From IMG/VR virus record IMGVR_UViG_2740892488_000014: a stretch of DNA of 30,859 nucleotides; one strand, 5' to 3'. This document shows positions 1 to 12,124 of the stretch, piece by piece. The translations under genes and the position numbers were made by a program. Numbering within the stretch: the stretch's first letter is position 1; each line of letters opens with the position of its first letter. The DNA comes from a virus (Duplodnaviria > Heunggongvirae > Uroviricota > Caudoviricetes). Below the pieces are notes generated by a model. That model was given only the letters and a program-made list of their open reading frames with translations. It made no database searches and was not told the origin of the DNA.

Positions 1-543
<543 letters not shown>

Positions 544-1784
544 ATCACAGCCTGTAAGGGCAATGGCGAGTAAGAGTACTGAGTATTTTAATCTCATGAA
601 TTCCCTTTAGAGTAAGGATTGGTTTTTAAGACGCGGTCTGTAATCAGTCCCGAGAGCTACAGTAAACAACGCTGAGCACTGAACGCATCACAGGTAAGGT
701 AAAAGGTGATATCGGCAAAGGCTGTGAAACCTTTAATTCAACAGATGGGAACGGTATGCGCAGGATCCTGTAACGACGCTCCCAAAACCGGAAACCTGTA
801 AGGCATGTTTTCGCTGCTGAACTTAATATACGAACCTGCACTATCATGAACATATTTTATATCGTTATACCCCGAGTGATTGTGCCCGGCAATGGATAGT
901 GTCCTGGAGGAACTATTTCTACTGTAAAAGGTAGATATTTAATTTCAGTTTTGAATTATTCCCTGCTGTTAATAACAATGGCTGTATATGGCACCGAGTA
1001 GGCATTTTTTCGCTTACTGAAGGGCAGCTGTGAGCGAGGAACAGACTTTCCCTACTTCGTTGAGAGTACACCTAGTACAATCAAGGCTAAATGATAAAAA
1101 TATACAAAATATCATATTTATGATATATATAATGGCATTAATCTTATTCTTGGATTACGTTGAAAGGGTAATATTATATTTGTGTAACATAGTTTAGATA
1201 ACAATGCCGTTATGGGGGGGGAAAGACATTTCAACATATTAGCTTTGTATCTAACGCTCATGTAGATCTCGATTTTGAACTTAAAGAACAATTATTTTTT
1301 AGAGAGCAAGGTATTTTTGGGGAACAAAAACATAAAGTAATGGAGAGAGGAGAATGTATCAAAAAATCATCGATTTAATTTAGATTGTCCGTATAGTTGG
1401 GGGTAAGTCGAATCGCTGGGCTACATGGAATATTGTGTCAAGTAAAAATATATTTCAATCTTGCAATAACCGATTGTTGAAAATAATGTCAAATCTTAAT
1501 GGTGAATGGGGAGAATATAATAAACATGAGTCGATATTATGCAAATGGATTTAAATATTTTATACCCGAAGACATAGGGTTTCGAGAGTTCGATGAGACT
1601 ACTTTGAATGCTTTCGAATTTGCTGGCTAAAACATATAGGTTATATCTTACATCTGTTTGTAATGGAGCGTAGATGCGACAAGCTACACCATAATAATCA
1701 TATTATGATATATTGTTAAGTTGTTATGGCATTAAATAAAATTATGTCATTTTGTTAACCAAGCAAGAATCAAAGGACTTTTAG

Positions 1785-2099
1785 ATGGGTACGGCATTAA
1801 TTTCAAGCTTTATTAGTGGTGCAATAGCTATAATCTCTATTGCTATATCTACTTATAATCAGAATAGAATAAACAAGCTCAATGAATCACTGGATGTAAG
1901 GAGAAAACATCAGTACTATATTGAACCGTTAATTCGCTCAGCTTCAGACTTACAAAGCCGTATTTATAATATATTAGAATTGGGGTTCATTGAAGAGTTT
2001 TATCATAATGGGAATAAGCGCCAACAAGATTATGTTATCAACAATACTGTTTTTTCTTTTTTTCCCAGTTTTTTGCATGGACAGAAGCTGCCCGCATAG
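1785..2099 (+). CDS. Hypothetical protein with an N-terminal TM helix; possibly the 5' part of a longer gene fragmented by homopolymer indels
   Basis: 104-aa ORF in the AT-rich island with a hydrophobic N-terminus LISSFISGAIAIISIAI; it ends in a region of T5/T7/T6 runs. Confidence 0.3.
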   Translation: MGTALISSFISGAIAIISIAISTYNQNRINKLNESLDVRRKHQYYIEPLIRSASDLQSRIYNILELGFIEEFYHNGNKRQQDYVINNTVFSFFPSFLHGQKLPA

Positions 2100-2136
2100 A
2101 CATTCAATACCTTAGCCTAGAAAAAAAATAAAAAAA

Positions 2137-2352
2137 ATGAGGGAGTTTATTAGATTACAGAACAATATTAACTCATTAATCCAAACAGACGTCTTTGGTC
2201 AGTATTTTATGTTTTTCATAGGAGAGCAGAGAGCTATTGCAGAAAAGATGCTGATATCAACAGATACTGGATTTGATTGCATAGGTTACGGCAGTTTCAC
2301 AAAGGAAAATTGCTTTATCAATGAGCCATTTTTTTTTAGATTTAAACAATGA
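2137..2352 (+). CDS. Hypothetical protein; possibly the middle part of the same fragmented AT-rich gene
   Basis: 71-aa ORF that immediately follows the A8 A8 runs and ends in a T9 run. A further 41-aa ORF follows at ~2363..2489. Confidence 0.25.
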   Translation: MREFIRLQNNINSLIQTDVFGQYFMFFIGEQRAIAEKMLISTDTGFDCIGYGSFTKENCFINEPFFFRFKQ

Positions 2353-2672
2353 AGTGATAAATATGACAAGAGATATCGGAATTTATAAAGAAAGGCTAAT
2401 CAGAATACAGCACGCGTTAATCGATTTAATTAATTTTCTTGATCCTGGCATGATTCGATTTGACGGAAAAAAATATGGAAAAATATAACCCAGATGATTC
2501 GTATCAAGGTAAGTTGCTATATGTATCAATTTAATTATGGTTGGGTGAAATTTATGTTAATAGTAGCGGAGGGTTAGTTAAAATATGCTCTCAGTGATTT
2601 TTGGATAGTTCTTTTATTTATCATTGAAAGTAAATATGTATAGCTTCAAGATTTACAAGTGAATCTGTTTAT

Positions 2673-2706
2673 TGACAGTCCGCTTATGGCACAGAGCGGA
2701 CTGTCA
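2673..2706. terminator. Perfect 12-bp inverted repeat TGACAGTCCGCT-N10-AGCGGACTGTCA; candidate intrinsic terminator or protein-binding palindrome
   Basis: Both arms read directly from the sequence. A TATTAAATTT tract follows on the + strand. Confidence 0.35.
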
Positions 2707-2904
2707 TATTAAATTTGGCTCCACGCCATAGATGTGTCAGCTCATATCTTATCTAATACACACAATAACTTTCTCATTCTTGGAGAATTATTTTTTTAAG
2801 GGTAGGTGTTGACGTTAGAGCAAAAGAATGGTGATTTTTTTGATGTGTATTACGTTGGAACTGATGGGAATAACTATCTGTTTTCAACGCACTGCTAATT
2901 TATC

Positions 2905-2926
2905 AAGGCCCTTTGATCAGGGCCTT
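2905..2926 (-). terminator. 8-bp stem hairpin AAGGCCCT-ttgatc-AGGGCCTT about 25 nt downstream of the minus-strand 2-TM gene; possible terminator
   Basis: Inverted repeat read from the sequence. No clear U-tract follows it. Confidence 0.3.
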
Positions 2927-2950
2927 CGAAAGACTGTTGGACCGAGAGAG

Positions 2951-3557
2951 TTACTTGCGTTTAAAAAGGTATTTTGTCACGACCAGCACGAGGCCGAATA
3001 CCTCTGTCAAAGTACCGCCCATGTACAACTGTAGTGTTAAATCCTCAAATTCCAGCTTACCTGCGCCGTCGGCAATAAATACACCATTCATTATCAGAAG
3101 TTGGAAAGCAAGGATAATCAGGAACCATTTCCCGTATCGTTTTTTTAGAGCGATTTCTGCTTCAAAATCTTTGTTGTTGAGTTGTTTGCGCTCATGCTCG
3201 GTATCAAGTGAATTCACCTGTTTCACAGATGTGAACTCGGTCAAGATTTTACTCTCAGTACGGGTGACTTGTTGAGAGGGTGTAGCAGTTGGAATTCTTT
3301 TGCTAGACGCAGCTACAGCCATTTTGCGAGCTTCGGCAGCTCTTTTTCTGGCTATTCCGCGAATACGGACAGCCGTTTTTTTTGGGGGCGTGCGAAACCT
3401 TTGGCTGAGGTGAAGCTTCGTCAGGAGACTGAACCGGAGTTTCATCGTCCTCCGGCTCAACCTCTTCTGCTAACTGACGGTGTAGGTTGAGGGAATCCTT
3501 CAGTCTGCGTGCTACTTCCTGTTTGAAACGGCTGTTAAAATCGTCATCCGATGGCAT
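2951..3557 (-). CDS. ~201-aa protein with a charged/acidic N-terminal region and two C-terminal TM helices, encoded immediately downstream of ImmA; frameshifted here in a homopolymer
   Basis: ORFs 3303..3557 and 2951..3460 (both minus) are consecutive parts of one reading frame. They join if the T8 run at ~3376-3383 (A8 on the coding strand) is read as 7: ...HAPKK|TAVRIRG.... The TM segments are WFLIILAFQLLIMNGVFI and LTEVFGLVLVVTKYLF. Confidence 0.6.
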
Positions 3558-3566
3558 TTTAAAGCG

Positions 3567-4056
3567 TTACCCCAACCTCAAGTTCTTTAAACGATAAGTC
3601 ATCGCATCGTCAGATACGCCAAAATAATGCGCCATTATATAACTTGGTTGACCGTCAGCGTGCAGTTTTCTGACCTCATCTACCGGCATCAGAAGTTCTG
3701 CTGCGAACTTGTTTGCAAAAATTTCATCAGGATGCGTTCCGGCGCTTGCGGTTTCGCCACGTAAATCAACGTACTCATATTCATCGCTATGCGATGCTTG
3801 CCGGGCGATGTAATGCCCCAACTCATGCCCACATGAAAAAACGTTGACGAACTTTGTTGTCATCACTGTTTAGAAAGATCGCTGGATCTTGATCTTTTTG
3901 TTTAATCAGTGCGCCAGAAACTTTCCCAGGAAGATCGGTAATAAAAACATCTAATCCCATGTCGTGAGCAATTTTCGCTGGATCAACAGGGAAACCACGC
4001 CCGCACCAGAACGTGTCCAGCACTCGCCGGGCGTGCTCTCTTGGGTTGGTAGCCAT
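3567..4056 (-). CDS. ImmA/IrrE-family (COG2856, M78-like) Zn-metallopeptidase with a HEXXH motif; frameshifted here in a homopolymer
   Basis: ORF 3823..4056 is an N-terminal domain of the kind found in ImmA anti-repressor proteases. ORF 3567..3866 carries HELGH plus a downstream E, i.e. the catalytic domain. The two join as ...VRQRFSCGHELGHY... if the 6-nt run at ~3836-3841 is read as 5. Confidence 0.8.
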
Positions 4057-4130
4057 AGCTCCTCCAGTTACTGCATTACGATTATTGGTTGAAATATAGA
4101 CAGCATGTTCCGTACCACATTCCTGTAAAA

Positions 4131-4145
4131 GTGCAAATTCTGCAC
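4131..4145. promoter_or_regulatory. Palindrome GTGCAAATTCTGCAC about 75 nt upstream of the ImmA start; candidate operator
   Basis: An inverted repeat GTGCA-N5-TGCAC read directly from the sequence. A related motif GTGCAAATAGTGCAG occurs at 4897..4911. Confidence 0.35.
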
Positions 4146-4432
4146 TTCTGGTACGATATTAACTGTTAGTAGTAAAGTCTTCCAGATAAATCACTTTAAA
4201 ATCTTGTGAATTGCTTGCTTTTTACGCTGTATTGTGGATGGTTCAATGTTTCCAGTAAAAACATACATGATAATCATGAGTTTAGTGTTTTTTTAGGCGT
4301 CTATATGTTTCTGGAAAATACAGGTCTAACCTGATCTTATCGTTGAGATTTTTTGTACTCAGTATGCGTGAACGATTCGACCAGGTGACTGTGTACGTGA
4401 AGAAGACCGCCCTTAATATTTTAAATGTGCAA

Positions 4433-4448
4433 CCCCTCAGAAGAGGGG
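4433..4448 (-). terminator. Rho-independent-type hairpin CCCCTC-agaa-GAGGGG directly downstream of the minus-strand HTH gene
   Basis: GC-rich 6-bp stem with a 4-nt loop, 7 nt after the stop at 4455. An A/T-rich tract follows on the minus strand. Confidence 0.5.
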
Positions 4449-4454
4449 CTACTC

Positions 4455-4688
4455 TCACTTCTGCAGTATCTCGCCAATACCTGCCAGATTCTCGTCCATC
4501 TTGTCACCGTTTTCGATAAGGATGGAGTTGAGCCGATTCAGTTGCATAGCAATTTCAAGTTTGATTAAGGTATCCACCGATACACCAGTTTCTTTTGCTA
4601 ACTTAGTAAGAGCCGCAGCTCGATTGGCTAAATTAAAATCATCGAACTCATAACGACTTCTGCACGGCTGGTTGCCTAACGTACCCAT
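4455..4688 (-). CDS. Small (77 aa) protein with a helix-turn-helix-like segment; candidate XRE/Cro-like regulator partner of ImmA
   Basis: The segment LTKLAKETGVSVDTLIKLE has an HTH-like pattern. It is co-oriented with ImmA and 400 bp upstream of it, with its own terminator. Confidence 0.45.
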   Translation of the reverse strand: MGTLGNQPCRSRYEFDDFNLANRAAALTKLAKETGVSVDTLIKLEIAMQLNRLNSILIENGDKMDENLAGIGEILQK

Positions 4689-4896
4689 AGTGATTCCTCA
4701 TGATATAAAGACCCAACAATATAAATTACCAGGCACATCATAAGATAGGGTTCCAGCCCATATTTTCAAATATTTGCAAGTATCACCGTTCAGTCTAAAA
4801 AGTTGGATGATGATTTAACGAGCCATAACAAAACCCTGCCTCGGAGGTTTTTTTCTTTTTTATAGAACTCAGCGGCGTGAAAACGAATAATAAATT

Positions 4897-4911
4897 GTGC
4901 AAATAGTGCAG
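4897..4911. promoter_or_regulatory. Second copy of the operator-like motif GTGCAAATAGTGCAG, about 20 nt upstream of the 4933 gene start
   Basis: 12 of 15 positions match the palindrome at 4131..4145. Confidence 0.3.
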
Positions 4912-4932
4912 TTTTTATTATTCGAGGTAATT

Positions 4933-5574
4933 ATGAAAACCTTCTATGAGGACTGGCCTGAAACTTTCGTTAGCCGGTTAGATATGTTACGGGCGTTGGA
5001 TGATCGCGGTTCGACCCGGAGGCTCTATCTTGAACGGACCGGGGCAATATTTGACGCTCTGGCAGAAGAGATACGTACAGTCGTTGCCGGGCATCCTGAA
5101 ATCGACGTGAGTGAACTTGATATCGGGCCGCTGTATCGCTATTACAAACGTGGAGAAAAGGGGAATCCGCTGGCTGACTTACTTATTGAGTTGGCTCCAC
5201 CAACTTGTGAACGGGTTCGTATATCTCCTGAAGTGTACATAATCCCGTATCTGTTTTTTGCACTGTTGATAGCGCAAGGCGCTGACAACGATGCCCGCGA
5301 TTTTTTCAATATGATGATGCGACCGTTAATCATCGCCTACCGTTTCAAACAACTGGCGCGATACCTGGGAACAAAGGGCGGAGGACGACCACAGCACAGA
5401 TTAAAAAGCGAAGCCATTGAACTGGCTGATCGTTTTTTTACTGAAAACCCGACAGCGCCATTATCGCGTGGCGTGCAATACATATCCGGTATTTTTGTGG
5501 CGAAATACTCTGACCCACCTGCAGCGTCGACGATTAGAAAATGGTTAATTCCAATTTACAGGAGTGATAAATAA
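4933..5574 (+). CDS. Hypothetical protein, 213 aa, no family recognised
   Basis: Long ORF with a good SD, GAGGT 5 nt before the ATG at 4933. The track ORF 4897..5574 uses a GTG upstream. Codon usage resembles the flanking genes. Confidence 0.7.
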   Translation: MKTFYEDWPETFVSRLDMLRALDDRGSTRRLYLERTGAIFDALAEEIRTVVAGHPEIDVSELDIGPLYRYYKRGEKGNPLADLLIELAPPTCERVRISPEVYIIPYLFFALLIAQGADNDARDFFNMMMRPLIIAYRFKQLARYLGTKGGGRPQHRLKSEAIELADRFFTENPTAPLSRGVQYISGIFVAKYSDPPAASTIRKWLIPIYRSDK

Positions 5575-5581
5575 TGACCAT

Positions 5582-5610
5582 AAACGGTTTAATCCCCTAT
5601 AAAACCGTTT
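5582..5610 (+). terminator. Inverted repeat AAACGGTTT-N11-AAACCGTTT 8 nt after the stop of the 4933..5574 gene; weak terminator or binding site
   Basis: 9-bp arms read from the sequence, followed by AATAAAATT. Confidence 0.35.
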
Positions 5611-5667
5611 AATAAAATTCACGACGTGAATATAATTGTTCATTATTCCCTCATTGTATTTGGCGTT

Positions 5668-5699
5668 ATGACAAATGCCATAAAATACTGTATAAATAT
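5668..5699 (+). promoter_or_regulatory. Rightward sigma70-like promoter (-35 ATGACA, 17-nt spacer, -10 TATAAA) overlapping the left half of a LexA box that is split by the ISL3 insertion
   Basis: Joining 5699 to 7593 reconstitutes TACTGTATAAATATACAGGT, i.e. CTGT-N8-ACAG with the TA-rich centre of the E. coli SOS-box consensus TACTGTATATATATACAGTA. The -10 overlaps the box. Confidence 0.6.
5692..5699. repeat. Target-site duplication ATAAATAT, left copy
   Basis: An identical 8-mer directly flanks both ends of the ISL3 element. ISL3-family elements make 8-bp TSDs. Confidence 0.8.
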
Positions 5700-5727
5700 G
5701 GGTCTTCCCCGATCATGGTGGGAAGAC

Positions 5728-6948
5728 TCAGTACGCCATATTCAGTTTCCCATAGTGGAACATAACTCCCAGTTTAAAGCGTTCCCGGTTTCGGTATCCC
5801 CTGGCCTTTATCCTCAGCAGTCTGATCTTGCTGTTCAGCGCCTCCGCATTTCCATTCGAGACGCGATGACGCATTGCATTCAGTATTCCGTATAACCGTT
5901 TTTTAATGGTTTTCGCTGCGTTTTTCATCATCGGCACATCACATTCAGACGCCAGCGATATCCACTGCAACCAGTCATTCCTGCGTTCTGTGCTCCAGGG
6001 GCGATCCCAGATATTTTTTGCCAGCTCTTTCAGTGTCCAGCACTGGCTTGTCTGTTGCATCTGTTCCCGCAACCACATCAGCTTTTCCTGCCGGGACTCA
6101 GTCATCCATTTGTCGCTGTACTGCCACAGGAAGCGGGTACCTTTGGCCTGACGACGACTTTCAACAGGGAGGTGCGGATGTTCATTCTGGCGGGTTTTAT
6201 CAACCACTTCGCCCAGTTGCTTCGCCACATGGAAGCGATCGAAGGCGATTTTCTCGACCGCATTGGGTAAATGGATACGCGCTGCTCTTATATAGCCCGC
6301 ATTCATGTCCATCGACAGTGTTTTGATGGCCAACAACTGACTGTCAGTAAGCGAACGGAGATAGCTGGCAAGACTCTCTGTGCCACGATCATCGGTTAAT
6401 GCCAGTGCCCGCCCGTCGCGATCAGATACCACGGTTATATACCTATGCCCTTTTTTAAAGGCGACTTCGTCTACATTCATATGACGCACTGATAAAGGCT
6501 TTTTAATCCGCGACAGGCCTCGCTTAACCGCGCGGGTCATGATGCCGTCAACGGCATTCCAGCTAAGTTTAAGTTGTTTTCTGACCGCATCAACGGTGCT
6601 GATTTTAAGCCATGAGAGCACGAACGATTCGAACAGCAGAGTGTACCGACTGCCGGAACCTGCCCACGGTACAGGCAGAGTCTGGCAGCCATGCTCCGGG
6701 CACATAACGCGGGGAACATCGGCTTCTACTAATGTCATGAACTGGCAGGTATCAAGGTGGCGCCATTTACGATGTCGGTGATCGTGAACAGAACAGGATT
6801 TCCTGCAGGTCGGACAGGTTAACTGAGTATTTTCAGCAATTCCGACTGTAACAGTAACGGAACCTGCATTTTCATCGAGGGTAAGGGATTTAACCTGCCA
6901 TGGTGCAGTCAGGTTAAGGATATGGGCATAGAGGGATTTTTCGTCCAT
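5728..6948 (-). CDS. ISL3-family transposase, 406 aa
   Basis: N-terminal Zn-ribbon (CPTCRKSC...CPEHGC) plus DDE domain, typical of the IS204/IS1001/IS1096/IS1165 (ISL3) family. Confidence 0.95.
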   Translation of the reverse strand: MDEKSLYAHILNLTAPWQVKSLTLDENAGSVTVTVGIAENTQLTCPTCRKSCSVHDHRHRKWRHLDTCQFMTLVEADVPRVMCPEHGCQTLPVPWAGSGSRYTLLFESFVLSWLKISTVDAVRKQLKLSWNAVDGIMTRAVKRGLSRIKKPLSVRHMNVDEVAFKKGHRYITVVSDRDGRALALTDDRGTESLASYLRSLTDSQLLAIKTLSMDMNAGYIRAARIHLPNAVEKIAFDRFHVAKQLGEVVDKTRQNEHPHLPVESRRQAKGTRFLWQYSDKWMTESRQEKLMWLREQMQQTSQCWTLKELAKNIWDRPWSTERRNDWLQWISLASECDVPMMKNAAKTIKKRLYGILNAMRHRVSNGNAEALNSKIRLLRIKARGYRNRERFKLGVMFHYGKLNMAY

Positions 6949-6966
6949 ATAATTTCATTCTGAAGC

Positions 6967-7485
6967 TTACTTTAAACTGATATTATTATTTTTTGCCCAC
7001 TTTCTTAATCTTCCATTAGCGTTGGCGTAAGGCGAAGATGTGTTAAATGAGATCATTCTCCCCATCGTCCATTTTGTGTACCATGGTCTTCCATACAAAA
7101 TATCATCGGTACGATCATTAATAAGGTTCACAATCTCATTTTTTACAGTCTGAAGTTCAGCTACTAACAACTCATAACTTAACTCACTGTAATCTGAGTA
7201 AAATTTTTGAGCAAGAAGGCCAAGCTGATTCCATTTATAGCCAGTTTCCGGAAAATCGACAGGCAGACCTTTAGCATCAGAAGCGATCCACTTTACAACA
7301 AGAGCATTCCATCCAAGCAGATACGAAACGAGATCACGAACACTCATCTCCGTTCCTTTGGCGTGTCCGTCCATTGATTTATCTGAAGTAATTTCTGGTG
7401 GGATTGTGTTGAGGTAACTAATTAATTTACTAAAATTTTTATCAATAGCTAAAAGCAGTTCAGCTTTTGTTTGCGGCACACTCAT
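6967..7485 (-). CDS. ClbS/DfsB-family (DUF1706) four-helix-bundle protein, 172 aa, carried as passenger of the ISL3 element
   Basis: Length and motifs such as ...KAELLLAIDKNFSKL..., ...DFPETGYKWNQLG... and ...YGRPWYTKWTMGRMI... recall the ClbS colibactin self-resistance family (from memory). It has its own SD GAGGG. Confidence 0.55.
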   Translation of the reverse strand: MSVPQTKAELLLAIDKNFSKLISYLNTIPPEITSDKSMDGHAKGTEMSVRDLVSYLLGWNALVVKWIASDAKGLPVDFPETGYKWNQLGLLAQKFYSDYSELSYELLVAELQTVKNEIVNLINDRTDDILYGRPWYTKWTMGRMISFNTSSPYANANGRLRKWAKNNNISLK

Positions 7486-7584
7486 AAGAATTCCCTCTCA
7501 TGTAAAAAGAGACACCATAAAGGTACTGTGTGGTGTTTGAAAATCGCTCAATTATGTACCACCCACCACAACAGGGGAAGACCC

Positions 7585-7598
7585 ATAAATATACAGGT
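7585..7598 (+). promoter_or_regulatory. Right TSD copy ATAAATAT plus right half ACAGGT of the split LexA box
   Basis: See the reconstruction under the promoter feature at 5668..5699. Confidence 0.6.
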
Positions 7599-7618
7599 TG
7601 TGGCATTGGGGGGAAGAC

Positions 7619-7798
7619 ATGAATATTCAAGAATCTATAGGCGAACTACCGGAAACATGCCGGGCTGTTATCAAGCGTAAGGACGGACACATCGTTGGTG
7701 TGCGTGTTCTGACCGATGATGAGCGGATTGCCAGCCTGATGGCGTTTCTCGAGTTGGCAGAAATAGCTGGATATACTATTACACCCCCTGACGCGTAA
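7619..7798 (+). CDS. Small protein (59 aa) of unknown function, first gene downstream of the disrupted LexA-controlled promoter
   Basis: ATG at 7619 with a purine-rich SD GGGGGGAAGAC. The track ORF 7598..7798 uses an upstream TTG. No family recognised. Confidence 0.55.
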   Translation: MNIQESIGELPETCRAVIKRKDGHIVGVRVLTDDERIASLMAFLELAEIAGYTITPPDA

Positions 7799-7875
7799 AA
7801 CACGGTATAATATCGGTGCTGGATTGAACACCCGGCATCATTTTCTGAACACTGCCGCGCCACCTGGAGTTAACC

Positions 7876-8472
7876 ATGGCGCAGCATTCATTTATCAGGG
7901 TATCCGGCGGTTCGCTAATACCCGCGACACCAGACACGCAACGCTGGTTGACTGAACGAGTCAAACCAGGTGCTGTTGTGTATGCAGATTTCAAACAGGC
8001 GCGTAATCCCGCGTTTCATCGTAAATTTTTCTCACTTCTCAACCTGGGCTTTGATTACTGGCATCCGTCCGGAGGGGCTATTTCTCCTGCGGAGCGCGAA
8101 CTGGTTCACGGCTACGTTAAGTTACTGGCGTATTACGGTGGACACGGTGATGTCATGGCAGAGCTGGCTGATCAGTATCTTCTCGATGAGTCGGAAAAGC
8201 GCGCGGGGAGTATCAGTGCGGTGAAGTCGTTCGAGGCGTTTCGCGCATGGGCGATTATGGAAGCTGGGTTTTATGACGTTCATCAGATGCCAGACGGCAG
8301 TTTGATGCGCGTACCTCGTTCAATCTCGTTTGCAGCGATGGACGATCTTGAGTTCGGTCAACTGTATTCAGCCGTTTTAGATGTGCTGTGGAATTATATT
8401 TTGTTCCGCACATTTGCCTCTCAGGAGGCCGCTGAAAATGCCGCCGCGCAGCTGCTGGATTACACATCATGA
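7876..8472 (+). CDS. Phage nin-region protein, NinB-like/DUF1367-type, 198 aa
   Basis: N-terminal pattern ...VVYADFKQARNPAFHRKFFSLLNLG... resembles lambda NinB ...VVTIQERNRSLDQNRKLWACLGDVS.... It sits immediately upstream of a YbcO-like gene and Q. Confidence 0.5.
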   Translation: MAQHSFIRVSGGSLIPATPDTQRWLTERVKPGAVVYADFKQARNPAFHRKFFSLLNLGFDYWHPSGGAISPAERELVHGYVKLLAYYGGHGDVMAELADQYLLDESEKRAGSISAVKSFEAFRAWAIMEAGFYDVHQMPDGSLMRVPRSISFAAMDDLEFGQLYSAVLDVLWNYILFRTFASQEAAENAAAQLLDYTS

Positions 8473-8762
8473 AAAAAATCGACCTGAGAAAAGCTGCACG
8501 CAGTCGCGCTTGTACTGTGCGTATCCCCGGTGTGTGCAATCACAATCCTGAAACCAGCGTACTGGCTCATTATCGTCTCGCCGGAACGTGCGGCACAGCC
8601 ATCAAACCTCACGATATGCAGGGCGCTATCGCCTGCAGTGCGTGTCACGATGCCATCGACGGACGTACAAAAACGGATTACGAGCACGACTCATTGTTGT
8701 TGATGCACGCTGAGGGAGTTTTCAGAACACTGGCTATCTGGCGCGATGAGGAGTTTATCTGA
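8469..8762 (+). CDS. ybcO: YbcO-like (DUF1364) putative phage nuclease, 97 aa
   Basis: DLRKAAR..C.VRIPGVCN.NPETSVLAH.RL.G.CGT..KP.D..A.IACSACHD.ID.RT is collinear with E. coli DLP12 YbcO. Its ATGA overlaps the upstream gene. Confidence 0.8.
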   Translation: MKKIDLRKAARSRACTVRIPGVCNHNPETSVLAHYRLAGTCGTAIKPHDMQGAIACSACHDAIDGRTKTDYEHDSLLLMHAEGVFRTLAIWRDEEFI

Positions 8763-9433
8763 TGAGTAACGAGTATTTATTGGAATATACCCGCATAAAA
8801 CTGCGCGCTGCATTGCGGGATTTGTCTGGTGGTTCTAAGGGGCAACTGGAAGCATTGTGTGAGCACCCACCGGCAGACAAAAACGCATACCCACGCAAAC
8901 ATATTCACCGTGTGCAGCTGGAGGACCGGACCGTTGATGCTCTGGTTACGCCAGTTTACGCTCTGGAAAGTTTCAGCAGACGTCGCCCCGCGCCGCCGAT
9001 GAGTGATTTTGAATTTGCTGATTCATCCTGGCGGCGTTCTGTGAACTCGCTGGATGCAAGTCAGCAAGCGTGGTTGCGTTATTGCTACGGTGGTAACCTG
9101 GCATTCAAACACCAAACAGCTATTTGTGAGGCTGTCTGGAGTCGCTATAAAGGAAACATCCCCGCGTCAACTCAGAGAAAAGTAGTTAAGCGCCTGCTTT
9201 CGTTGGTGTGGTTGTCCGTGCAGGCGGTCGCAGCAGCAAATAAACGCGAGGATTTTAAGGAGATGGCCGGATCTACCCTAGCAGGAATGCTGTCGGTTTC
9301 TCGTTCCACCTGGTGCGAAACATACTCCCTGCACTGGGTAGGAATGAAAGAGGCGGTGAGAGCACTTGATGAAGTGGCACTTCTTGCAACTTTGCATCAT
9401 TATCAGAACCATTTAGACGACGTTTGCGTATAA
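8762..9433 (+). CDS. Phage late-gene antitermination protein Q (Phage_antitermQ family), 223 aa
   Basis: Size, position (last nin-region gene before the lysis genes) and sequence features of the antiterminator-Q family, with a PR'/tR'-like promoter region downstream. Confidence 0.8.
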   Translation: MSNEYLLEYTRIKLRAALRDLSGGSKGQLEALCEHPPADKNAYPRKHIHRVQLEDRTVDALVTPVYALESFSRRRPAPPMSDFEFADSSWRRSVNSLDASQQAWLRYCYGGNLAFKHQTAICEAVWSRYKGNIPASTQRKVVKRLLSLVWLSVQAVAAANKREDFKEMAGSTLAGMLSVSRSTWCETYSLHWVGMKEAVRALDEVALLATLHHYQNHLDDVCV

Positions 9434-9436
9434 TGC

Positions 9437-9500
9437 TTGCAAAAACGAACAAAATAGGCCATATTTGACGCTAATTTGGTATGTTGCCAAATTTCTAAGA
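9437..9500 (+). promoter_or_regulatory. Candidate late promoter PR' with qut region (TTGACG-17-CAAATT or TTGCAA-17-CATATT)
   Basis: The -35/-10 arrangement resembles lambda PR' (TTGACT-17-TAAATT), placed between Q and a hairpin and upstream of the lysis genes. Confidence 0.4.
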
Positions 9501-9501
9501 A

Positions 9502-9526
9502 CCTCGCCACGGCGGGGTTTTGTCGT
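9502..9526 (+). terminator. tR'-like intrinsic terminator (CCTCGCC-ac-GGCGGGG followed by TTTTGTCGTTT)
   Basis: GC stem plus U-tract about 10-40 nt downstream of the candidate PR'. This is the classic Q-modifiable terminator position. Confidence 0.55.
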
Positions 9527-9545
9527 TTCTGAATCAGGAAAAATC

Positions 9546-9929
9546 ATGTCTGAACCTCTAACCGCTGGCGTTGCTGCTGGCTCGGCGGGGGTGACGTTTG
9601 CTGCGTTATTTCCTGAGGCAACACCTGCAGTGATGATCTGTGCGCTGGCAGGCGCAGCTCTCTATGTGTTGTCGTCCGGGCAGCATCGATTCTGGAAGCA
9701 GGTTATTTTCGCACTCATTTCGTTTGTTGGCGGTGTGTATTGCGCTGAGACAGCGTCAGCCATCATTACCGGTATTCTGAACGCGGTGCTGAGTCACCTG
9801 AACCCTCCCGTAACAGTAAAAGTCTCTCCCGCCATTGGTGCACTGGTTGCATCAGTAATCAGCGTTACATCACTGTTGCGGATCATGTCACAAGCTCGTT
9901 TATGGAAATCAGATAAGGGGATGAAATAA
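9546..9929 (+). CDS. Holin (multi-TM small membrane protein, 127 aa)
   Basis: First gene after PR'/tR', three hydrophobic segments, SD AGGAAA; the track ORF starts at 9465. Confidence 0.7.
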   Translation: MSEPLTAGVAAGSAGVTFAALFPEATPAVMICALAGAALYVLSSGQHRFWKQVIFALISFVGGVYCAETASAIITGILNAVLSHLNPPVTVKVSPAIGALVASVISVTSLLRIMSQARLWKSDKGMK

Positions 9930-10189
9930 TGACCCTGCACTCTGTCCTCATCAATGCCAATGCAATTATTTGTCTGATGTTGGCACTACGGTTGATGTTT
10001 TTTCAAAAAACAGGCCGCTATCGTTTTTTTCATCTCACTAACTGCTTACCTCGCGATTCTGTCTGCTGCGTGGATAGCCCTACGAATTTTTTTACGGGAA
10101 ATATACGCAGGTTGATCCCGCAGAGTTCTTTCTCAACCTCACCATCTGTATTGCTGTCTGGCGGGCACGAGGGAATATTTCAAAAATAA
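9929..10189 (+). CDS. Small membrane protein, possibly a second holin or antiholin; likely frameshifted at a T7 run. With T6 it would be 61 aa ending at ~10115 with two TM helices
   Basis: ATGA overlap with the holin gene. The N-terminal TM is VLINANAIICLMLALRLMFF. Removing one T at ~10024-10030 continues ...GRYRFFISLTAYLAILSAAWIALRIFLREIYAG*. Confidence 0.45.
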   Translation: MTLHSVLINANAIICLMLALRLMFFQKTGRYRFFHLTNCLPRDSVCCVDSPTNFFTGNIRRLIPQSSFSTSPSVLLSGGHEGIFQK

Positions 10190-10202
10190 CAGGAGACAGG
10201 TA

Positions 10203-10682
10203 ATGACGGATCCTAAATGGCTAATCGAGGCTCGAAAAAACCTCGGCATTCGGGAAATGAAAGGGAAGCAACATGCTGCAGAAATTGTGCAGTACTGGAA
10301 AGATATCAAACGCGGCGGCATTAAGGATGACGAAACACCGTGGTGCGCTGCTTTCACCGGGGCAATGCTGGAACGTGCGGGTATTCGCTCAACGCGTTTT
10401 GAGTCTGCGAATTCTTATCTCGATTGGGGTAATGAACTGAAGGAACCCGCCTATGGATGCATTGCTATTCTGTCTCGGTCTGGCGGTGGTCACGTCGGCT
10501 TTGTTGTCGGGAAAAATGCCGCCGGGGATTTAATGATTTTGGGGGGCAACCAGGCAGATGAAGTAAATATCAAAGCTTTTCCTCGTTCCCGCGTAACAGG
10601 CTACCGCTGGCCAGCAGGTCAAACGGATGTTCCACAATCACTTCCATTGGTGAATGCTGAGAAATCTATCTCAGAAGCGTAG
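10203..10682 (+). CDS. Phage endolysin of the TIGR02594-type (NlpC/P60/CHAP-like) family, 159 aa
   Basis: Position after the holin genes; conserved ...GIREMKGKQHAAEIVQYW...DDETPWCAAF...GGHVGFVV... pattern typical of Gifsy/lambdoid-prophage endolysins. Confidence 0.7.
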   Translation: MTDPKWLIEARKNLGIREMKGKQHAAEIVQYWKDIKRGGIKDDETPWCAAFTGAMLERAGIRSTRFESANSYLDWGNELKEPAYGCIAILSRSGGGHVGFVVGKNAAGDLMILGGNQADEVNIKAFPRSRVTGYRWPAGQTDVPQSLPLVNAEKSISEA

Positions 10683-10689
10683 GTAAAAC

Positions 10690-10884
10690 GTGAAAAAACT
10701 TCTCTTAGCTGTCGCGTTCTTCACGCTGGCAGGCTGCACACATTCGACATACACCGAAGCGACTCGCGCTGACGGCAGCAGTATTAAACACGTGATGATC
10801 GCGCCGGGTACGAAGATTACTACTGCGAACGGTGGTTGTATTGATTCAACCGGGGCAGAGGCTTCATGCCTTGGTGGAAAATAG
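10690..10884 (+). CDS. Small lipoprotein (64 aa; signal peptide plus lipobox LAGC); candidate spanin component (o-spanin/Rz1-like) or lysis-associated lipoprotein
   Basis: MKKLLLAVAFFTLAGC... directly after the endolysin. No partner i-spanin ORF is evident. Confidence 0.55.
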   Translation: MKKLLLAVAFFTLAGCTHSTYTEATRADGSSIKHVMIAPGTKITTANGGCIDSTGAEASCLGGK

Positions 10885-10904
10885 GGTAATTTACTTTAAC
10901 GAGA

Positions 10905-10929
10905 GGCCGCCTTTTTGTTTTAAGGCGGC
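10905..10929. terminator. Hairpin GGCCGCCTT-tttgtttt-AAGGCGGC between the convergent lipoprotein and moron genes; candidate bidirectional terminator
   Basis: 8-9 bp GC-rich stem with a T-rich loop. Confidence 0.45.
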
Positions 10930-10943
10930 ACACATTCAACAGA

Positions 10944-11204
10944 TTAAGGTAACTGATTTGACCATTTTGTTGCGCGCCAGTTGTTCTGAACCATAATCTT
11001 CTGAAGTATCTCATCTGAAGGCTCTGCTTCGCCGCTTAGCCATTCTCTTAAAGTTGAACAATTTAGATAAGAGGAGTTCGCACGATAAAAAGATACGATG
11101 GCGTCCTCTGATAACTTCTCAGGAAACTTTTTTGGGTCAGCTTCTTTTAATATTACGCTCATTAAGGCTTCAATTTTTTCTCTGTTCATTTTTTGCGTTC
11201 TCAT
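10944..11204 (-). CDS. Hypothetical protein (81-86 aa) encoded antisense to the late operon in an AT-rich segment; a moron-like insertion
   Basis: The only plausible ORF in the AT-rich 10.93-11.33 kb segment between the lysis and packaging genes. No family recognised. Confidence 0.4.
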   Translation of the reverse strand: MRTQKMNREKIEALMSVILKEADPKKFPEKLSEDAIVSFYRANSSYLNCSTLREWLSGEAEPSDEILQKIMVQNNWRATKWSNQLP

Positions 11205-11557
11205 GGTTGTTGTTTTTCTGTAATGATATCAATAAGTTCAAGATATATACATATATGGAAAACTTGTTCGGTAGTCTATCGATACAGCACAAAAGGATGG
11301 CTCGCTGCCAAAGTGAAAGCTTACGCTGATAATCAGATACACAAAGCTGATGTATGCAAACAAGTACGCCGCGAGGCTACAGTTGAGTTTGATGAACCTG
11401 ATGCGAGCCCCTAATTCCTGTCCTGAAAGGGAGATAGCCCCCTGGTCGCGGGTCCTTTCCGAAATCCAAAACACCGAGGGTCGGTAGACGCGCAAAAACT
11501 CGCTCGTTTTTAGTATTTTTTCATTTTGGGTATTTCCGGTTCCGGTGAGGATTTTTA

Positions 11558-12124
11558 ATGGCAAGTCAGGCTGAGGTTGCAGCACATTTACTGCTATCTG
11601 ATCGTCGTCTGCGCGATCTCGCAAAACTTCCGGGAGCACCAGTCCCACAAGGACGTGGTGATTGGGAGCTAGACGCATGGCGCCATTTTTATATTCGTTA
11701 TCTCCGGAGCAATAGACGCGACACAACTAGTAATGACGAACCGGAAGCGGGGGACAATTCTCCCGAAAAAAATCGCGAGCAGTGGCTGAAAAATGAGGAA
11801 CGACAGGAGCGAATCCTGATGGCACGAGTAAAACGCCGCATTCTCGCTAAACGCTACGCGCCAATTGAATTAATTAGCGTCGCTGTATCTCGCGTCGCCG
11901 TTGAATTACGTACCCGCGTCGAGTCGTGGCCACCACGCCTGAAAAAGGTCTGGCCGGAGATGCCGCAAGAGGCGAGCAGTGTATTACGAGAGGAGCTGGC
12001 GATAGCCTTAAATGAGTTGTCAGACATACGAATCGACTTCAGCGATTACGATGTCAGCGATATCGAACGCGATCTCGACAGGGTTGAATCCCTTGCGCGT
12101 GACGATACCGATGACGGGTGTTGA
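11558..12124 (+). CDS. Putative terminase small subunit, 188 aa
   Basis: Position immediately upstream of, and overlapping, the gpA-like large terminase. It has a basic N-terminus and an acidic C-terminus. Functional call is by synteny. Confidence 0.6.
   Translation: MASQAEVAAHLLLSDRRLRDLAKLPGAPVPQGRGDWELDAWRHFYIRYLRSNRRDTTSNDEPEAGDNSPEKNREQWLKNEERQERILMARVKRRILAKRYAPIELISVAVSRVAVELRTRVESWPPRLKKVWPEMPQEASSVLREELAIALNELSDIRIDFSDYDVSDIERDLDRVESLARDDTDDGC

Follow-up and report, generated by a model that had tools for sequence, protein, structure and literature searches.

The subject of this report is a block of four genes at positions 7619-9433 of a 30,859-nucleotide (nt) stretch of caudoviral DNA (IMG/VR record IMGVR_UViG_2740892488_000014), here called the window, whose source DNA is of the Escherichia coli sequence type 131 (ST131) type. 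The first gene of the block encodes a 59-amino-acid (aa) homologue of the antirepressors GfoA and FsoA, the last one a Q-type late antiterminator. The best explanation, to which we give a probability of roughly 0.8 as a whole, is that the window belongs to a complete temperate phage of E. coli ST131, integrated at tRNA-Leu (leuZ) beside yecA, and that the block starts with a module that is, by most of its defining features, a LexA-controlled antirepressor locus of the type known from the Gifsy prophages. The module is assigned to this type because homology, position, operator (in the state without insertion) and repressor type all fit. In the window itself the operator is split by the insertion sequence (IS) ISEc53, and a survey of other copies of this element and its relatives essentially establishes that they prefer LexA boxes as their target. 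The answer on the phage is an ordinary and clarifying one; the targeting of LexA boxes by an IS is the unexpected part and matters more.

The Antirepressor Homologue and the Genes Behind It

A preliminary description of the same DNA, drawn up from the letters alone, had listed a 59-aa gene, a NinB-like gene, a YbcO-like gene and Q at this place. ORF (open reading frame) calls together with Pfam and PHROG matches confirm all four as co-directional and tightly packed, the NinB-like gene being a member of DUF1367. The block and the spacer behind it contain the following features:

7619-7798, plus strand: 59-aa GfoA/FsoA-family antirepressor homologue (PHROG 340), preceded by the ribosome-binding site GGGGGGAAG; now cut off from its promoter
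7876-8472, plus strand: DUF1367 gene (PF07105, E 6e-78), homologue of irsA of the Gifsy phages (STM1020/STM2620); PHROG 319, which is annotated as NinB/Orf-like
8469-8762, plus strand: YbcO-family putative nuclease (PF07102, E 3e-40), the start of which overlaps the DUF1367 stop
8762-9433, plus strand: Q-type late antiterminator (PF06323, E 3e-38; PHROG 304, E 9e-77)
9434-9531, plus strand: spacer between Q and the holin gene, with a terminator hairpin (9498-9521) plus tail
9437-9465, plus strand: possible promoter TTGCAA-17-CATATT, a candidate read by eye that falls below the scan threshold

The 59-aa protein matches PHROG 340 (E 1.6e-20), as do FsoA of Salmonella phage Fels-1 (E 1.1e-26) and a GfoA homologue recovered from IMG/VR (E 7.6e-21). 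In pairwise BLASTP it is 33% identical to GfoA over 51 aa (E 6e-10) and 41% identical to FsoA over 39 aa (E 3e-8). The C-terminal motif GY-x-(I/V)-TPP is common to the 59-aa protein and GfoA, and an alignment that includes GftA retains R15, G23, R29, L31, D34, E35, F43 and G51. On these matches the protein is a GfoA/FsoA-family homologue and a putative antirepressor, in line with the earlier suggestion that it could be antirepressor-like. Its family membership is visible only via the PHROG profile; Pfam gave no match, a PDB sequence search gave none at E up to 1, and a search of 5.8 billion proteins returned 7 clusters, all from Escherichia. For the comparison, fsoA was taken as the Fels-1 ORF MNSQQMM...EEISNVG, fixed by primers le154 and le162 (Lemire et al., 2011, Table S1, which also gives the ends of gfoA), and irsA was identified through primer pp644 of the primer table in the same paper.

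The repressors of the Gifsy phages are not cleaved on induction. They are inactivated by the small antirepressors GfoA, GfhA and GftA, and by FsoA of Fels-1, and the Gifsy antirepressors are controlled by LexA (Lemire, Figueroa-Bossi and Bossi, 2011, PMC3121763). The gftA gene alone suffices for induction of Gifsy-2, dinI accompanies the Gifsy loci and is not required for antirepression, and a terminator lies just upstream of the LexA promoter in these phages (PMC3121763). Gifsy-2, Gifsy-1-like loci and coliphage mEp237 all have the order LexA box, dinI, gftA/gfoA, irsA (DUF1367), Q. In the present phage, the 59-aa gene occupies the gfoA/gftA position: it lies outside the immunity region, to the right of the replication genes and directly upstream of the irsA (DUF1367)/Q block.

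Within this block the gene ends overlap at DUF1367/YbcO and at YbcO/Q, and no intrinsic terminator is predicted between the 59-aa gene and DUF1367 (terminator scan; fold z = 0.03). Behind Q, the hairpin at 9498-9521 has a 10-bp, G+C-rich stem with a U tract (z = -3.4), and the holin gene starts at 9546. Q followed by a short leader with a predicted intrinsic terminator in front of the lysis genes is the usual layout of Q-dependent late control.

The SOS Promoter and Its Split Operator

An intact LexA box is missing from the window, in which CTGT-N8-ACAG has 0 matches. The two half-sites are present on either side of ISEc53:

5668-5699, plus strand: left remnant of the SOS promoter, with -35 element ATGACA (5668-5673), a 17-nt spacer and -10 element TATAAA (5691-5696)
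5688-5691, plus strand: LexA half-site CTGT, left of the IS
5692-5699, plus strand: left copy of the 8-bp target duplication ATAAATAT
5700-7584, minus strand: ISEc53 (ISL3 family, 1885 bp), with terminal inverted repeats GGGTCTTCCCC; annotated as ISEc53 in RefSeq
5728-6948, minus strand: ISEc53 transposase gene (DDE_Tnp_ISL3, PF01610, E 1e-58, plus ISL3 helix-turn-helix and Zn-ribbon domains)
6967-7485, minus strand: clbS-like DUF1706 (ClbS/DfsB) passenger gene within ISEc53
7585-7592, plus strand: right copy of the 8-bp duplication ATAAATAT
7593-7596, plus strand: LexA half-site ACAG; the last two box positions, GT, are at 7597-7598

When the IS and one copy of the duplication are taken out, the window reads TACTGTATAAATATACAGGT, a box that overlaps the -10 element. 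The reconstructed sequence occurs exactly in the IS-free relatives (phage record ON470624, strains 22270 and 23366). Like the functional boxes of Gifsy-2 and mEp237, it agrees with the E. coli consensus in 17 of 20 positions. Locus L004 of an IS-free relative, 44 kb comprising host flank plus most of the prophage, has no other CTGT-N8-ACAG; the chance expectation is 0.15 per 30-kb window. At loci with 59-aa homologues of 73-76% identity, CTGT and ACAG are invariant and the neighbouring bases vary. The start codon of the 59-aa gene lies 22 nt after the ACAG half-site (21 nt between). The promoter hexamers were read by eye; the promoter scan did not list them.

The LexA box over the promoter is thus present in IS-free relatives and split by ISEc53 in the window. 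The earlier claim that a LexA-box promoter feeds Q stands for the IS-free state, in which this promoter is the nearest one, is co-directional and has no predicted terminator on the way through the 59-aa gene, DUF1367 and YbcO into Q. It does not stand for the window itself.

Two observations concern this promoter region. About 55 bp upstream of the SOS promoter there is a second promoter-like site (5609-5636, TTAATA-16-TATAAT, 10/12 matches), whose spacer contains the palindrome ATTCACGACGTGAAT; the arms ATTCAC-N3-GTGAAT are kept in diverged relatives. This palindrome may be the operator for another regulator, and the site may offer a LexA-independent route to Q. Secondly, the (TA)n spacer of the box has lost 2 bp in one relative, CP122768.1 (L012, approximately position 7963), giving CTG-TATATATA-CAG, i.e., CTGT-N6-ACAG, so that the CTG and CAG triplets are 10 nt apart instead of 12. 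Judged by this spacing, LexA should no longer bind and the antirepressor should be made constitutively, barring compensation or an assembly error.

The Prophage in Related Genomes

The prophages of strains S65EC, 22270, 23366 and MNCRE44 are >99.8% identical to the window over the shared DNA. To the left of the shared segment they have a full early arm, with the following gene order from the left end:

First: tRNA-Leu, tyrosine integrase, DUF4224 xis-like gene, Gp157-family gene
Second: 130-aa helix-turn-helix (HTH) repressor facing a 76-aa YdaS/cro-like gene, then YdaT
Third: two replication genes, DnaB-type helicase, four small genes
Fourth: accessory island of 8-9 kb (ORF6N, LprI, ImmA/IrrE-type peptidase and several unknowns), then the 59-aa gene

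Genes for int, cI, cro and O/P are not found within window 1-5600, because the window begins inside a copy of the insertion sequence ISEc52, which truncates lprI in the accessory island. The statement in the preliminary description that repressor, integrase and replication module are lacking on the left is correct for this part of the window and incorrect for the element, as the relatives carry all three. The left arm is also kept in three genomes in which an ISEc52 copy has entered the same part of the island (lprI/ORF6N).

The repressor of the relatives is 130 aa long and has an HTH_3 domain only, without a Peptidase_S24 domain. It is 33% identical to GtgR over the full length (E 5e-23) and 29% identical to GfoR (E 4e-11). 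From these comparisons the cognate repressor, as seen in the relatives, is a short GtgR/GfoR-family member without the S24 autocleavage domain, and is predicted to be of the non-cleavable type. As a whole, the phage has head genes like those of lambda, a contractile tail of the P2 type and an immunity region of the Rac/Gifsy type. One of the records used, ON470624.1 (L002; Escherichia phage vB_EcoM-705R4, a GenBank 'complete genome' of 27,112 bp), runs from host yecA to the ImmA gene in the island and is a truncated prophage prediction rather than a whole phage genome.

Proposed Mechanism and Alternative Explanations

The components of the proposed switch are all visible when the window is compared with its relatives: a GfoA/FsoA-family gene whose promoter is overlapped by a LexA operator wherever the IS is absent, a repressor (in the relatives) predicted to be non-cleavable, Q with a putative terminated leader, and, in the window, an IS in the operator. 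In the intact state, LexA would bind TACTGTATAAATATACAGGT over the -10 element of the sigma-70 promoter. Upon DNA damage, LexA would be removed and the 59-aa protein made. By homology to GfoA and FsoA, this protein would bind the short non-cleavable repressor of the GtgR/GfoR type and strip it from its operators, whereupon the early genes would be switched on. As no terminator intervenes, the same transcript may run on into DUF1367, YbcO and Q, and Q would enable RNA polymerase to pass the terminator that precedes the lysis, head and tail genes. In the window, with ISEc53 between the half-sites, the operator destroyed and the promoter left behind reading into the IS, the switch is broken.

Several points weigh against this explanation. 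BLASTP gave no match between the 59-aa protein and GftA, approximately 20 N-terminal residues of GfoA are missing from the 59-aa protein, and PHROG 340 carries the annotation 'unknown function'. FsoA is dispensable for the induction of its own phage (PMC3121763), so that family membership proves no role in induction. A dinI homologue is lacking, and there is no dinI ORF between the ACAG half-site and the 59-aa gene. Unlike in the Gifsy phages, no clear Rho-independent terminator precedes the SOS promoter; the A+T-rich 10-bp hairpin upstream of it (5581-5611, z = -2.55) has no U tract and was not called by the terminator scan. The repressor and the early region are seen in the relatives and not in the window, and a deletion to the left of ISEc52 is possible in this strain. 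Support for an antirepressor role in this phage consists of sequence and comparison.

A dual output of the operon is compatible with the Gifsy-type explanation and is regarded as a possibility of a tentative kind. According to this proposal, the LexA promoter is also the main promoter of Q, so that the SOS response both lifts repression and licenses late transcription, and the island insulates Q from the early rightward promoter. The lack of a predicted terminator behind the 59-aa gene (z = 0.03) and the overlapping gene ends fit such an arrangement, as do the three minus-strand genes and the 13-bp-stem hairpin (2673-2706) that the island places on the path from the replication genes, and the terminator that the Gifsy phages have just upstream of the LexA promoter. 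However, Q must also be reached by a route other than the LexA promoter, since LexA would keep it off when the phage infects an undamaged cell, and the second promoter-like site at 5609-5636 also counts against the proposal. Moreover, gftA alone is enough for Gifsy-2 induction, premature expression of Q would risk lysis before replication, and the case is one of sequence layout. A literature search on whether the Gifsy SOS transcript reaches Q gave nothing usable.

It is unlikely that the 59-aa protein is instead the product of an SOS-induced moron with another function, such as a host-directed inhibitor or prophage crosstalk, while induction follows another route, for instance cleavage of the repressor by the ImmA/IrrE-type protease of the island. 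FsoA provides a precedent, since its own phage can be induced without it and the repressor on which it acts is a foreign one (PMC3121763), and a gene for an M78 ImmA/IrrE peptidase is indeed present at 3567-4056. That gene, however, is missing in L010-L013, relatives which have retained the LexA box together with the 59-aa gene and Q, and its product resembles CapP of defence systems (E 2e-25). The repressor, in turn, belongs to the GtgR/GfoR type, and induction in the presence of such repressors has been demonstrated to proceed by antirepression. As a variable-island gene that is CapP-like and missing from relatives that keep the module, ImmA/IrrE was rejected as the induction protease.

Least of all can the preliminary description be followed in its proposal of a stripped-down, tailocin-like or gene transfer agent (GTA)-like particle element with heads, lacking repressor and integrase, in which Q and the late genes would be switched directly and solely by LexA cleavage: although window 1-5600 holds no early genes, the LexA promoter is contiguous with Q in the IS-free state, and the left arm of this strain is unseen as the window opens inside ISEc52, all relatives examined have int, an xis-like gene, repressor, a cro-like gene and a replication arm, the first gene of the block is an antirepressor homologue that makes sense only with a repressor present, and terminase, portal and a full head module are there. 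Tailocin- and GTA-like elements are normally without integrase, repressor and replication genes; judged by the gene content to the left in the >99.8% identical prophages of S65EC, 22270, 23366 and MNCRE44, through which the larger context was checked, the present element has a complete early arm.

Disruption of the Switch by ISEc53

ISEc53 has the characteristics of the ISL3 family, namely the transposase, the terminal inverted repeats and an 8-bp duplication. It sits exactly between CTGT and ACAG, with the 8-bp spacer of the box duplicated. The left remnant of the promoter has half an operator only and reads into the IS, antisense to the transposase gene, and the antirepressor gene is now 1.9 kb from the promoter. 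Because the operator is gone and the antirepressor gene lies at this distance, the prophage in the window is probably no longer SOS-inducible. A point against this is that an outward-reading IS promoter could still drive the 59-aa gene; one weak candidate is found at 7409-7436. A hybrid promoter at the junction between the IS and its flank was rejected, as no convincing -35/-10 pair could be seen by eye.

The promoter region was compared in 439 complete genomes and is uninterrupted in 414 of them. The IS is present in the orientation of the window in 14 genomes, one of which has a 95%-identical ISL3 variant, and in inverted orientation in 10 (e.g., MNCRE44; L001 10127-12011), at the same position and with the same duplication. 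Both orientations at one LexA box point to independent hits or to inversion in place.

Relatives of ISEc53 of 1316 bp occur without the clbS-like gene. Genes of this kind reportedly protect against colibactin-triggered prophage induction. Given such protection, the clbS-like cargo and the insertion site of ISEc53 would act in the same direction, which may be a coincidence. Colibactin has been shown to induce prophages (Silpe et al., 2022; PMC8907063), and a clbS-like gene beside an ISL3 transposase has been described as a transposon integrated in the chromosomes of ST131 C1/C2 (2025 preprint, 10.1101/2025.11.17.686825).

LexA Boxes as Targets of the ISEc53 Clade

As both orientations were found at one site, other insertion sites of the IS were looked at. 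A first chromosomal sample was biased, since its members ranked high through similarity of their flanks, and it was replaced by a census sampled by IS-internal sequence only, in which a 26-mer from the IS end yielded 103 metagenome and 33 viral-contig loci (the IS-site loci are L056-L061 and L064-L203).

In the clade of ISEc53, ISKox3 and ISCfr12, 77 of 95 distinct flanks (81%) have CTGT at exactly -12 to -9, against a chance expectation of 1 in 256 for one fixed position, and most of the others deviate from it by one base. The consensus of the flanks is tACTGTaTaTAtAT, the left half of the LexA-box consensus. When complete elements with both flanks are considered, both half-sites (CTGT and ACAG) are found 8 nt outside the ends in 42 of 50, and an identical 8-bp duplication in 32 of 50. 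The mismatched duplications may come from recombination between copies or from chimeric metagenome contigs.

Individual copies have the same setting. On an IncF plasmid, ISEc53 is inserted in CTGT-ATATACAT-ACAG, directly upstream of a dinI-like gene and umuD. Chromosomal copies of ISEc53 in the flank-biased sample lie in boxes beside sbmC, beside hokE and in other prophages. The umuDC, sbmC, hokE and dinI genes are members of the LexA regulon. ISKox3 (on IncX3, upstream of an S24 peptidase gene), ISCfr12 and an ISL3 copy on IncFIB, all of them 84-88% identical relatives, are each found in CTGT-N8-ACAG with a duplicated spacer.

These elements thus have a target preference for LexA boxes, which is essentially shown by the flanks, and the SOS box of the prophage was destroyed because such boxes are the target of the IS. 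Two observations count against it. The ISEc53 copy in fimB, a well-known hallmark of ST131, is not in a LexA box (GTGT-ATATATAT-CCAT; S65EC, L063 2817-4701); its duplication, placed in an (AT)n run, measures 5 bp or is ambiguous, and it is the clearest off-consensus site seen. In addition, 19% of the flanks deviate from CTGT.

No literature was found that links ISL3, ISEc53 or ISKox3 with LexA or the SOS box, the searchable literature being incomplete, and it is probable that LexA-box targeting by this clade has so far gone undescribed. The odds are about even that ISEc53, ISKox3 and ISCfr12 are LexA-operator-seeking transposons of a kind not described before, in which TACTGT-N8-ACAGTA is recognized by the transposase, or by docking on bound LexA, and cut 8 bp apart. 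Participation of the LexA protein and an adaptive value of the insertions are uncertain.

The Accessory Island and the Rest of the Window

Apart from the locus described above, the window contains the following features:

1-543, plus strand: 3' part of ISEc52 (IS3 family), with the transposase C-terminal ORF at 31-513; 99.6% identity to annotated ISEc52
544-597, minus strand: first 54 nt of lprI (LprI family), cut by ISEc52; window 544-9499 aligns to S65EC locus L003 8948-1, in which lprI starts at 8895
598-5574, unstranded: variable accessory island, in relatives between the replication genes and the antirepressor module
1785-2488: gene of 232 aa, frameshifted in the window, with a weak match associated with defence-associated reverse transcriptases (DRT)
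2673-2706: strong hairpin with a perfect 13-bp stem (7 G-C pairs), between convergent island genes
2951-3556, minus strand: gene of 201 aa
3567-4056, minus strand: ImmA/IrrE M78 peptidase, CapP-like (E 2e-25)
4455-4688, minus strand: gene of 77 aa
4933-5574, plus strand: gene of 213 aa, its start placed according to S65EC; the ORF opens at 4897
9546-30859, plus strand: late operon, with two holins, endolysin, terminase, gpW, portal, S49 protease, decoration and major capsid proteins, FI and head-tail joining
within 9546-30859, plus strand: tail genes of the late operon, with P2-like baseplate, fibre, sheath, tube, tape measure and U/X/D

The island contains the CapP-like ImmA/IrrE peptidase gene followed by the 201-aa unknown, and its cargo varies: in relatives (L006-L013, 1-7850), GmrSD (GmrSD_N) or SMEK_N genes take their place. 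This stretch, which follows the replication genes and precedes the antirepressor module, is a hotspot for variable cargo and probably a defence island. The hairpin at 2673-2706 is likely a bidirectional terminator, which would stop read-through from the early-right operon towards Q. The exact ISEc52/lprI junction of the window is found in 0 of 5,426 complete E. coli genomes, and in five of these genomes ISEc52 occupies other points of the same island.

Several ORFs of the window, among them those for ImmA, terminase and sheath and others in the late operon, are split by homopolymer indels. Compared with near-identical genomes, the window has 19 single-base differences (the comparison listed 21 gap positions, two of them twice), all of which are one-base length changes in A/T runs of 5-9 bases, e.g., at 3841, 12901, 25444 and 28428, and it has 0 substitutions. 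Decay or pseudogenization of the prophage was rejected as the cause, since every difference from the relatives is such a one-base change in an A/T run; because substitutions are lacking as well, the split ORFs are most likely assembly errors. No Rfam family was found in window 1-12000.

Implications

If the explanation holds, the leuZ/yecA prophage of ST131 would be induced along the Gifsy-type route, from LexA via an antirepressor to a non-cleavable repressor, by a kind of module that is already known. Approximately 6% of the sequenced carriers (25/439) have the switch cut by an IS, and such lineages probably cannot induce the prophage on DNA damage, e.g., by fluoroquinolones or colibactin.

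As the target is the LexA operator, each insertion by a LexA-operator-seeking element would sever an SOS gene from its operator or promoter, and prophage antirepressors, umuDC, sbmC and hokE would thereby be uncoupled from LexA or from their promoters. In ST131, ISEc53 would then blunt prophage induction by DNA damage in two ways, through the insertion and through the clbS-like colibactin-resistance gene. The clade is widespread in enterobacteria and common on IncX3 and IncF resistance plasmids and in ST131. If confirmed, its targeting would be a natural example of a transposon directed to the binding site of a global regulator and a ready mechanism for rewiring of the SOS regulon, including the operons for error-prone polymerases on plasmids. 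The frequent annotation of ISKox3 and ISEc53 beside umuD would be explained by it as well.

Comparison with Known Systems

The closest known counterparts of the locus are found in the Gifsy phages. As with GfoA/GfhA of Gifsy-1/-3 and GftA of Gifsy-2, the small antirepressor is encoded away from the immunity region, in the interval from the replication genes to Q. In these phages too, a LexA box overlaps the promoter, and the repressor of 130-138 aa has no S24 domain and belongs to the same family as that of the ST131 prophage. In contrast to the Gifsy loci, the present one has no dinI between box and gene and no clear upstream terminator, and its protein is approximately 20 residues shorter than GfoA at the N-terminus, with 33% identity. 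The present phage further differs from them by the approximately 8-9 kb of accessory genes in front of the antirepressor gene, the P2-like contractile tail and the IS-split operator.

In the cultured E. coli lambdoid coliphage mEp237 (mEp237_048/049/050), a terminator, the LexA box TACTGTATAAAAACACAGTA, dinI, a gfoA homologue, DUF1367 and Q follow one another. The mEp237 gene is a near-identical copy of GfoA accompanied by dinI, whereas the present protein is a more distant member of the family. FsoA of Fels-1, which belongs to the same PHROG 340 family, experimentally inactivates a GtgR-type repressor. Unlike the present gene, fsoA belongs to the early-left operon, which is controlled by the cleavable repressor of Fels-1 itself and not by LexA; no LexA box precedes the early-left-operon members of the family in Fels-1, ASU11 and KPP5665-2.

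Tum of coliphage 186 is a 146-aa protein with a DinI-like half, and its genomic context is P2-like. Tum and AntC of phage N15 follow the same logic, in that the SOS response reaches a non-cleavable repressor by way of an antirepressor under LexA repression (PMC3121763); they are likened to the present protein by logic alone.

With regard to the IS, other elements of the ISL3 family make 8-bp AT-rich duplications, and ISEc53, ISKox3 and ISCfr12 are likewise ISL3 elements with 8-bp duplications. The elements IS1397 and ISKpn1, which target repetitive extragenic palindromic (REP) sequences, also choose a short palindromic host motif, as ISEc53, ISKox3 and ISCfr12 do. In contrast to the motif of these REP-targeting elements, that of the ISEc53 clade is the operator of the global repressor LexA.

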